Shown piece by piece: positions 24,139 through 49,808 of a DNA stretch of 64,000 nt; position 1 is the stretch's first letter; each line of letters opens with the position of its first letter. The stretch is taken from the NCBI RefSeq assembly GCF_056746865.1, contig NZ_CM163382.1. One strand, 5' to 3'. Below the pieces are notes generated by a model. The model ran no database searches and had not been told where the DNA came from. It was given only the letters and a program-made list of their open reading frames with translations. A program made the position numbers and the translations under genes.

Positions 24139-24238
24139 GCCGGATGCGGCGTAAACGCCTTATCTGGCCTACAAAAATGTGCAAATTCAATAAATTGCAA
24201 TTCAACTTGTAGGCCTGATAAGCGCAGCGCATCAGGCA
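24139..24238. repeat. Pair of inverted REP elements (BIME) in the fliC 3' region
   Basis: gccggatgcggcgtaaacgccttatctggcctac and gtaggcctgataagcgcagcgcatcaggca are classic REP palindromes in opposite orientation. Confidence 0.75.
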
Positions 24239-24280
24239 ATTTGGCGTTGCCGTCAGTCTCAGTTAATCAGGTTACAACGA

Positions 24281-46863: not shown

Positions 46864-49388
<2,525 letters not shown>

Positions 49389-49469
49389 CCTGACGACTCC
49401 CAACCTGCTTTTTTATGATTCTGGCATAACCTGGCGATAGCGTACCGCAAAACAGCGATAATTTTATAA

Positions 49470-49610
49470 TGGTGGCATGATAAGACGCGACAGACATCGA
49501 TAGTTTTATAACGTAGGCATGATAAGACGCGATAGCGTCGCATCAGGCAATTCAGTGCAGACACTGGCACACCCGACCGGATGCGACGTGAGCGCCACAT
49601 CCGGTCGGGT
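49470..49610. repeat. REP-type palindromic repeat cluster
   Basis: ggcatgataagacgcga occurs twice (49474-49490, 49516-49532); REP palindrome at 49518-49549; long palindrome cccgaccggatgcgacgtgagcgccacatccggtcggg at 49572-49609. Confidence 0.7.
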
Positions 49611-49625
49611 GTTAATGATACCCTT

Positions 49626-49808
49626 TCAAACTTCTTCCGCAGGACGACTCCCCTCCCCTGGAACAAGCTCGGTTTCATGAAAAGCTTCCCGCTTGACCCC
49701 GTAACCGTCATACCAACGACACTCAACCATACCGCTGGAGTATCCAGTGACAATCATCCGCGGGCCGCCCTCTTTAACCGTAACTTCCTCACTAACCATA
49801 AAGCTCAT
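49626..49808 (-). CDS. yodC: Small protein YodC
   Basis: 60 aa ORF MSFMVSEEVTVKEGGPRMIVTGYSSGMVECRWYDGYGVKREAFHE... Confidence 0.85.
   Translation of the reverse strand: MSFMVSEEVTVKEGGPRMIVTGYSSGMVECRWYDGYGVKREAFHETELVPGEGSRPAEEV

Follow-up and report, generated by a model that had tools for sequence, protein, structure and literature searches.

A short direct repeat lying among palindromes between two genes raises the questions of what kind of element it belongs to, how the repeat came about and what the element might do for the genes on either side. Such a compound repeat cluster had been predicted between dgcQ and yodC in the 64 kb stretch of Escherichia coli DNA analysed here (the window), and this placement agrees with the RefSeq annotation of strains that match the 261-nt interval with 100% identity. 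Both genes lie on the - strand with yodC first, and their spacer measures 237 bp in the window. The first base of the REP cluster lies 14 nt past the yodC stop codon and the last 64 nt ahead of the dgcQ start codon, a GTG at 49388 that is preceded by a GGGAG Shine-Dalgarno sequence.

The interval is best explained as a BIME-2-type cluster of REPs that has partly decayed; it is of an already-known kind and implies no new element or mechanism. The explanation developed below, in which a two-unit BIME-2-type array would have decayed, its repeats would serve as a recombination substrate and its remaining hairpins would act in the 3' untranslated region of yodC, is taken as a whole very likely. The RefSeq record of MG1655 (NC_000913.3) annotates no repeat feature at dgcQ-yodC. 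REP features are missing from this record even at yaiL-frmB, which is a textbook BIME-2 in strain BW25113, so the lack of annotation at dgcQ-yodC is uninformative.

Anatomy of the repeat cluster

REPs of E. coli are imperfect palindromes that form a stem-loop of ~29-37 nt, carry GTAG directly on their 5' side, contain an AA/GC mismatch and fall into the y, z1 and z2 types (PMC8266576). The REP palindrome expected in the interval was located as a Z2-type copy of 37 nt, GTAGGCATGATAAGACGCG-ATAG-CGTCGCATCAGGCA, with GTAG at 49513-49516 on the + strand and the AA versus GC bulge retained (GATAAGACG opposite CGTCGCATC). It carries one additional mismatch, GCA for the canonical GCC, and differs from the canonical Z2 of yaiL-frmB, GTAGGCCTGATAAGACGCGCAAAGCGTCGCATCAGGCA, by one substitution and a loop shorter by one base. 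The coordinates of this and the other features of the locus are collected in Table 1.

Table 1. Features of the yodC-dgcQ locus, ordered by position in the window
Feature	Position	Strand	Composition, basis or role
dgcQ (yedQ)	47694-49388	-	Downstream member of the tandem pair; diguanylate cyclase regulating cellulose synthesis
Possible third, much older REP vestige	49434-49449		- strand TGCGGTACGCTATCGC resembles Z2 head arm plus loop TGCGACGCTATCGC
Unit A of the 42-nt repeat	49452-49493	+	Flank (ACAGCGATAATTTTATAAT), GGTG replacing GTAG, orphan Z2 tail arm; first 17-mer 49474-49490
Unit B of the 42-nt repeat	49494-49535	+	Flank (ACATCGATAGTTTTATAAC), GTAG, tail arm of the intact Z2 REP; second 17-mer 49516-49532
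Z2-type REP	49513-49549	+ (GTAG-first)	GTAG GCATGATAAGACGCG ATAG CGTCGCATCAGGC A; REP-arm regular expression and alignment to the second hairpin of naRNA4
Z2-Y linker, head-to-head	49550-49568		Small hairpin CAGTG-CAGA-CACTG
Y-derived REP hairpin	49569-49612	-	Inverted repeat, RNA folds and alignment to the first hairpin of naRNA4
yodC	49626-49808	-	Upstream member of the tandem pair; REP cluster within its predicted 3' untranslated region

A second, near-perfect palindrome of 38 bp had also been described. It is real, but larger than stated: two 20-nt arms (49569-49588 and 49593-49612) that are 90% complementary enclose a 4-nt loop, giving 44 bp in all. On the yodC-sense (-) strand the arms form an uninterrupted 20-bp stem, including two G.U pairs, and the opposite strand has C.A mismatches where the sense strand has G.U. 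RNA folds of the two strands of this Y-derived element gave z-scores of -5.9 and -4.8. The stem-loop typical of a REP is thus present in both the Z2 copy and the Y-derived copy. In the latter, GTAG has been lost (ACCC on the - strand), two G.U pairs take the place of the AA/GC bulge, and the stem reaches into both flanks. Judged by these characters, the hairpin is best described as a REP derivative, not a canonical REP. The linker that separates the two palindromes is ~13-15 nt longer than those of the naRNA4 model and the yaiL-frmB BIME-2.

The 17-mer GGCATGATAAGACGCGA proved as reported, with two exact copies on the + strand 42 bp apart from start to start. No further match to it was found in the 64 kb window with up to three mismatches allowed; 0.25 matches are expected by chance, and two were reached in 1 of 100 shuffles. 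The 17-mer sits at the centre of a longer tandem duplication, of 42 nt, whose units are 86% identical without indels, differing at 6 of 42 positions, and which TRF recovers as a period-42 array of 1.9 copies with a score of 127. Unit A was found in every E. coli allele examined, K-12 included. Its arm is preceded by GGTG, at 49471-49474, where a REP would have GTAG.

Relationship to known REP and BIME families

The original prediction of a composite BIME-like element was borne out. The Z2 REP reads GTAG-first on the + strand, and the Y-derived copy stands in inverse orientation 20 nt away. When the - strand was compared with Rfam, the Y-Z2 pair aligned over the full naRNA4 model (RF02564, positions 1-77) with 43.3 bits and an E value of 9e-7, a score below the family's gathering score of 59.5 bits. 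The shortfall arises because the linker is 13 nt longer and the Y copy is divergent. The pair is homologous to naRNA4 in architecture and not a member by Rfam's own criterion. At a permissive threshold, the only Rfam matches beyond naRNA4 were chance-level microRNA and lncRNA matches to the palindrome.

Dispersed relatives were found in nearly every genome searched. When 5426 complete E. coli genomes were searched with the 107-nt unit by word-11 BLAST, all but one of them (5425) held at least 36 related places each (median at least 39), in keeping with the dispersed extragenic copies that characterize REPs; the locus itself lies between two coding sequences. Full-length relatives, at 76-81% identity, include the canonical BIME-2 at yaiL-frmB, and strains without the window allele have best matches at other sites that span 86-89% of the unit, again at 76-81% identity. 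Given the REP hallmarks, the naRNA4 alignment and these relatives, the element belongs to the REP/BIME family. With megablast, an 82-nt allele-specific segment was found at this locus alone (median of 1 place per genome). Its reading as unique sequence was rejected, as the word-11 search showed the result to be a limit of megablast sensitivity.

Within this family, the pairing of Y with Z2 is that of BIME-2. Like REP325 in yjdM-yjdN, which is the source of naRNA4, and the yaiL-frmB array, the locus holds Y and Z2 in inverse, head-to-head arrangement, with Y transcribed before Z2; it is extragenic between same-strand genes, has dispersed high-copy relatives, and shows multiplication of the whole unit in tandem, here only in outgroups that carry two units each. 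It differs from them in having a single complete unit followed by a truncated second one, in its longer linker with a mini-hairpin of its own, and in a Y copy that forms a longer, perfect hairpin without GTAG and the AA/GC bulge. The tail sides differ as well: the tail-to-tail linker of yaiL-frmB is ACTTCGCCCGTAAGCC, whereas the tail-side flank here begins GTTATAAAA.

BIME-2 elements are known to bind gyrase. The suggestion that the cluster might also provide an IHF site did not hold, as the consensus WATCAANNNNTTR was not found on either strand of 49389-49640 with up to one mismatch allowed. Because this consensus is absent from the spacer, the element is not of the BIME-1 or RIP type (Y-L-Z1 with an IHF site). 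It shares with that type two inverted REPs separated by a linker, and differs in that the partner of Y is Z2, not Z1.

Probable origin of the direct repeat in a two-unit array

We compared the yodC neighbourhood in one genome per species. Among the species compared, E. coli-type REP arms occur in the yodC-dgcQ spacer of six Escherichia representatives only: Escherichia sp. MOD1-EC7003, Escherichia sp. E1V33, E. albertii, E. whittamii, SCPM-O-B-8794 and E69, of which the last two are diverged records titled E. coli. All six carry Y-linker-Z2 directly after yodC. Spacers of non-Escherichia Enterobacteriaceae gave no match to the Y/Z2 arm patterns, those of E. coli being the patterns searched. 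With the BIME present in all six Escherichia representatives and in none of the other genera, the element is old in the genus. The order of yodC and dgcQ is itself conserved more widely, in Citrobacter, Salmonella, Enterobacter, Kosakonia, Klebsiella, Buttiauxella and others, with spacers of roughly 60-370 bp.

In E. whittamii and E69, the spacer holds two tandem Y-linker-Z2 units of ~133 nt each, and it is these arrays that explain the direct repeat. The - strand of the window aligns to the E. whittamii array with 91% identity (217 of 238 positions) and a single 79-nt gap, into which fall the Y REP and linker of unit 2 and the head arm of its Z2; alignment to the E69 array shows the same at 88% identity. 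Unit B is orthologous to the tail and flank of unit 1 of the E. whittamii array, and its flank agrees at 20 of 22 positions with the unit-1 flank, which in E. whittamii precedes the second Y REP. Since the window aligns to a two-unit array across one 79-nt gap, the two 17-mers are best read as tail arms belonging to two directly oriented Z2 REPs, of which the second is truncated. Unit A would then be the stump of a second BIME unit that has lost its Y REP, its linker and the head arm of its Z2. The description of a direct repeat combined with REPs thus needs correction in one respect: the repeat is real, but the E. whittamii alignment makes it the Z2 tail arms themselves and not an extra feature.

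Read in yodC sense, the proposed anatomy starts with the Y-derived hairpin, continues through the linker to a complete Z2 REP ending in CCTAC, and passes over a 22-nt flank to the orphan tail arm of the second Z2, which ends in CCACC and would be followed by its own homologous flank. A 79-nt deletion within a two-unit array of ~133 nt per unit would leave what looks like a 42-nt tandem repeat. In the arrays of both E. whittamii and E69, the second Z2 REP has lost the top of its stem-loop, at GCCTGATGC|CTCGTATCATGCC and GCCTGATGCG|TCTTATCATGG; internal deletions that gut a REP therefore recur at this site in several lineages.

A third and still older REP vestige may lie on the dgcQ-proximal side, at 49434-49449. 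Local alignment of this block to Z2 scored 21, against a shuffle mean of 11.6, and 4 of 2000 shuffles reached 21. The 10-mer GCGATAGCGT occurs at 49434 and again at 49529 (49529-49538), 95 bp apart, and the block is conserved throughout the Escherichia sequences that were compared.

Allele series within E. coli

The interval is present in 5363 of 5426 genomes. Comparison of strains for copy-number variation, a check proposed for this locus, revealed alleles with one, two and three copies of the 42-nt unit, and these REP-bearing alleles together account for 1214-1221 of the 5426 genomes (about 22%). The two-copy allele of the window (spacer 237 bp) is found in ~1145 genomes, including ATCC 8739 and E2865. 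The one-copy allele (spacer 195 bp; ~61 genomes, e.g., LZYWN_4 and HS30-1) has both REPs intact and a single 42-nt unit, whose junction is exactly the left part of A, the 17-mer and the right part of B. The three-copy allele (spacer 279 bp) occurs in two genomes, UTAK-12 and 00_3305, with the 25-nt inter-repeat spacer duplicated identically. One- and three-copy variants thus differ from the window allele by a length step of exactly 42 bp, in register with the 17-mer. At the DNA level, the 17-bp direct repeats would serve slippage or unequal recombination, generating alleles of one, two and three copies in 42-bp steps, a proposal for which the register of the variants provides partial demonstration. 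The direction of these copy-number events is our inference. The one-copy allele occurs together with a distinct yodC haplotype and is similar to the MOD1-EC7003 allele, which has a single unit; it could be an old allele, not a recent deletion.

Most remaining genomes, including K-12 MG1655, CFT073 and O157:H7, carry a short allele with a spacer of 170 bp. It is colinear with an intact single unit, from which it differs by two deletions, one of 13 nt within the Y REP and one of ~11 nt that takes out the Z2 head arm, leaving a hairpin with a 13-bp stem and an orphan 17-mer. The K-12 allele would accordingly be the same element after two more internal deletions. Whether the short allele derives instead from the other unit of the ancestral array is a point on which the alignments do not discriminate. 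One locus displays, across the genus, all stages of decay together: a two-unit array, one unit with a stump, a single unit and gutted REPs. What looks like an odd direct repeat in the letters alone is the trace left by the decay of a BIME array, and beyond this the repeat adds little.

In a separate genome, AST205 (NZ_AP043614.1, 2105081-2108126), an IS1A lies 92 bp upstream of dgcQ and is followed by a 5'-truncated hchA. With the IS1A abutting the truncated hchA, this strain lacks yodC, the REP cluster and the genes next to them, a loss apparently mediated by IS1.

Alternative origins of the 42-nt unit

The 42-bp step of the alleles could also be accounted for by a recent local tandem duplication, that is, a simple VNTR that happened to catch half a REP and has no history as a multi-unit BIME array. 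The clean period-42 array of 1.9 copies without indels found by TRF agrees with such an event, as does copy number changing in steps of 42 bp. Against it stand the 6 mismatches between the two 42-nt units, set in a spacer that otherwise hardly varies within E. coli, its flanks being 98-100% identical between strains; units diverge to this extent because the duplication is old, not recent. The 20 of 22 positions that unit B shares with the E. whittamii unit-1 flank, and the alignment to a two-unit array with one 79-nt gap, are likewise at odds with a purely local event. Only the step from two to three copies resembles a recent duplication, because the added spacer is identical. As an account of the repeat itself, a simple VNTR is quite unlikely.

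A further possibility is that the 42-nt unit is a duplicated regulatory site of dgcQ, either a -10 region (TATAAAAT, - strand) or an operator, and that its similarity to REPs is incidental. Each unit has an A/T-rich TTATAAAA(T/C)TATCG on the - strand, and the units are located between 64 and 147 nt ahead of the start codon; the unit-A motif is conserved across Escherichia and reads TATAAT in MOD1-EC7003, and no better promoter is predicted in the spacer. However, no acceptable -35 element occurs at 15-19 nt from either motif copy (the best has 2-3 of 6 positions), a Z2 REP arm unmistakably makes up half of each unit, and the boundaries between units are those of the outgroup BIME units. Literature on the yodC/yedQ regulatory region that might favour this reading was not found. 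We regard a duplicated regulatory site as very improbable, and equally so its consequence that copy number would set dgcQ transcription directly.

Mobility offers the last alternative. A REPIN, the doublet mobilised by a RAYT (TnpA-REP), also consists of inverted REPs with a spacer, and TnpA-REP requires GTAG and the bulge (PMC8266576). The Z2 copy at yodC-dgcQ keeps the bulge as well as GTAG, the guide. Neither is present in the Y copy, and the element sits genus-wide at an orthologous site across the six Escherichia representatives, decaying and without sign of recent insertion. A recent RAYT insertion of a REP or REPIN into a REP-free spacer in ~22% of strains, with K-12 as the empty ancestral site, would fit the restriction of the allele to 1214-1221 of 5426 genomes and the determinants retained by Z2, but it is extremely improbable: the K-12/CFT073 allele is not empty, retaining the Z2 tail arm, the linker and a Y hairpin shortened internally by 13 nt, all colinear with intact single-unit alleles, and the BIME stands at this site in six other Escherichia representatives while other genera with yodC-dgcQ synteny are without it. 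The preferred reading of the 42-nt repeat remains that of a remnant of an old two-unit BIME-2-type array.

Hairpins in the predicted yodC 3' untranslated region and probable function

At the RNA level, the cluster would be transcribed as the 3' untranslated region of yodC, and comparison of alleles bears on whether its hairpins matter there. Between the alleles of the window, MOD1-EC7003 and K-12/CFT073, two pairs of the Y stem are altered on both sides (C-G to A-T and A-T to G-C), and a K-12-specific substitution in the stem again yields G.U, which pairs on the sense strand only. Pairing that holds on the sense strand alone, together with the paired stem changes, suggests that an RNA hairpin in the 3' untranslated region of yodC is under constraint. 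Palindrome-templated repair, instead of selection on the RNA, could also be the source of the compensatory changes. RNAalifold returned a weak covariation term (+0.77) for the Y hairpin across species, because the register of the alignment shifts by 1 nt in the more distant ones; for this reason, the compensatory changes cited here come from direct inspection of the alleles of E. coli and MOD1-EC7003, not from RNAalifold.

The means by which dgcQ is transcribed are relevant to any such role. A promoter scan predicted no sigma-70-like promoter on the - strand of the spacer, so dgcQ may depend partly on read-through from yodC; a relaxed scan of the spacer returned -10-like hexamers only, without a -35 element. 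A terminator scan predicted no intrinsic terminator in the spacer, and neither hairpin is followed by a U-tract. A search for literature on the yodC/yedQ regulatory region or the dgcQ start site yielded nothing usable.

Elements with comparable placement offer a guide. A preprint describes two roles for REP325 in yjdMN: it attenuates the downstream gene, in part through Rho, and it stabilises the upstream mRNA. The same work reports that tandem gene pairs with REPs between them show a raised ratio of upstream to downstream expression, that REP positions vary between strains, and that REP effects are strongly context-dependent, not uniform (bioRxiv 10.64898/2026.03.23.713779). Similar to the 3'-UTR stabilisers or terminators of malE-malF and of yjdMN, the cluster lies directly past a stop codon in a tandem gene pair and has stable hairpins on the sense strand; it is unlike them in lacking a U-tract, and its role is assigned by analogy. 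On this analogy, the Y and Z2 hairpins most likely shield yodC mRNA from 3' exonucleases and stop part of the transcription that runs on into dgcQ, and both the stabilising of yodC mRNA and the damping of read-through would be stronger with the window allele than with the K-12 allele. As the K-12 allele is further deleted, the degree of uncoupling between yodC and dgcQ probably varies among strains.

A bolder proposal is that the 42-bp unit acts as a strain-level tuning knob and that selection by niche keeps the four allele classes (decayed, one, two and three copies). If true, recombination between the 17-bp repeats would change the number of REP-derived hairpins and A/T-rich motifs between the genes, altering read-through into dgcQ or its initiation and hence c-di-GMP-dependent cellulose production. 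We consider this quite unlikely. The short, one-, two- and three-copy alleles nevertheless form a natural series for testing REPs between tandem genes as combined stabilisers and attenuators, and the series precedes a gene with an easy phenotype, as dgcQ controls cellulose production.

Other REPs in the window

REPs also occur elsewhere in the window. A canonical-looking BIME-1 (Y-L-Z1) lies at 24139-24239, where the Y REP TGCCGGATGCGGCGTAAACGCCTTATCTGGCCTAC faces an inverted Z1-type REP, GTAGGCCTGATAAGCGCAGCGCATCAGGCA; its A/T-rich linker of 36 nt contains ATTCAATAAATTG, which by eye is IHF-like with one mismatch. Additionally, a single Y-type REP, GCCGGATGCGGCGCGAGCGCCCTATCCGGCCTAC, is found on the + strand at 63248-63281.
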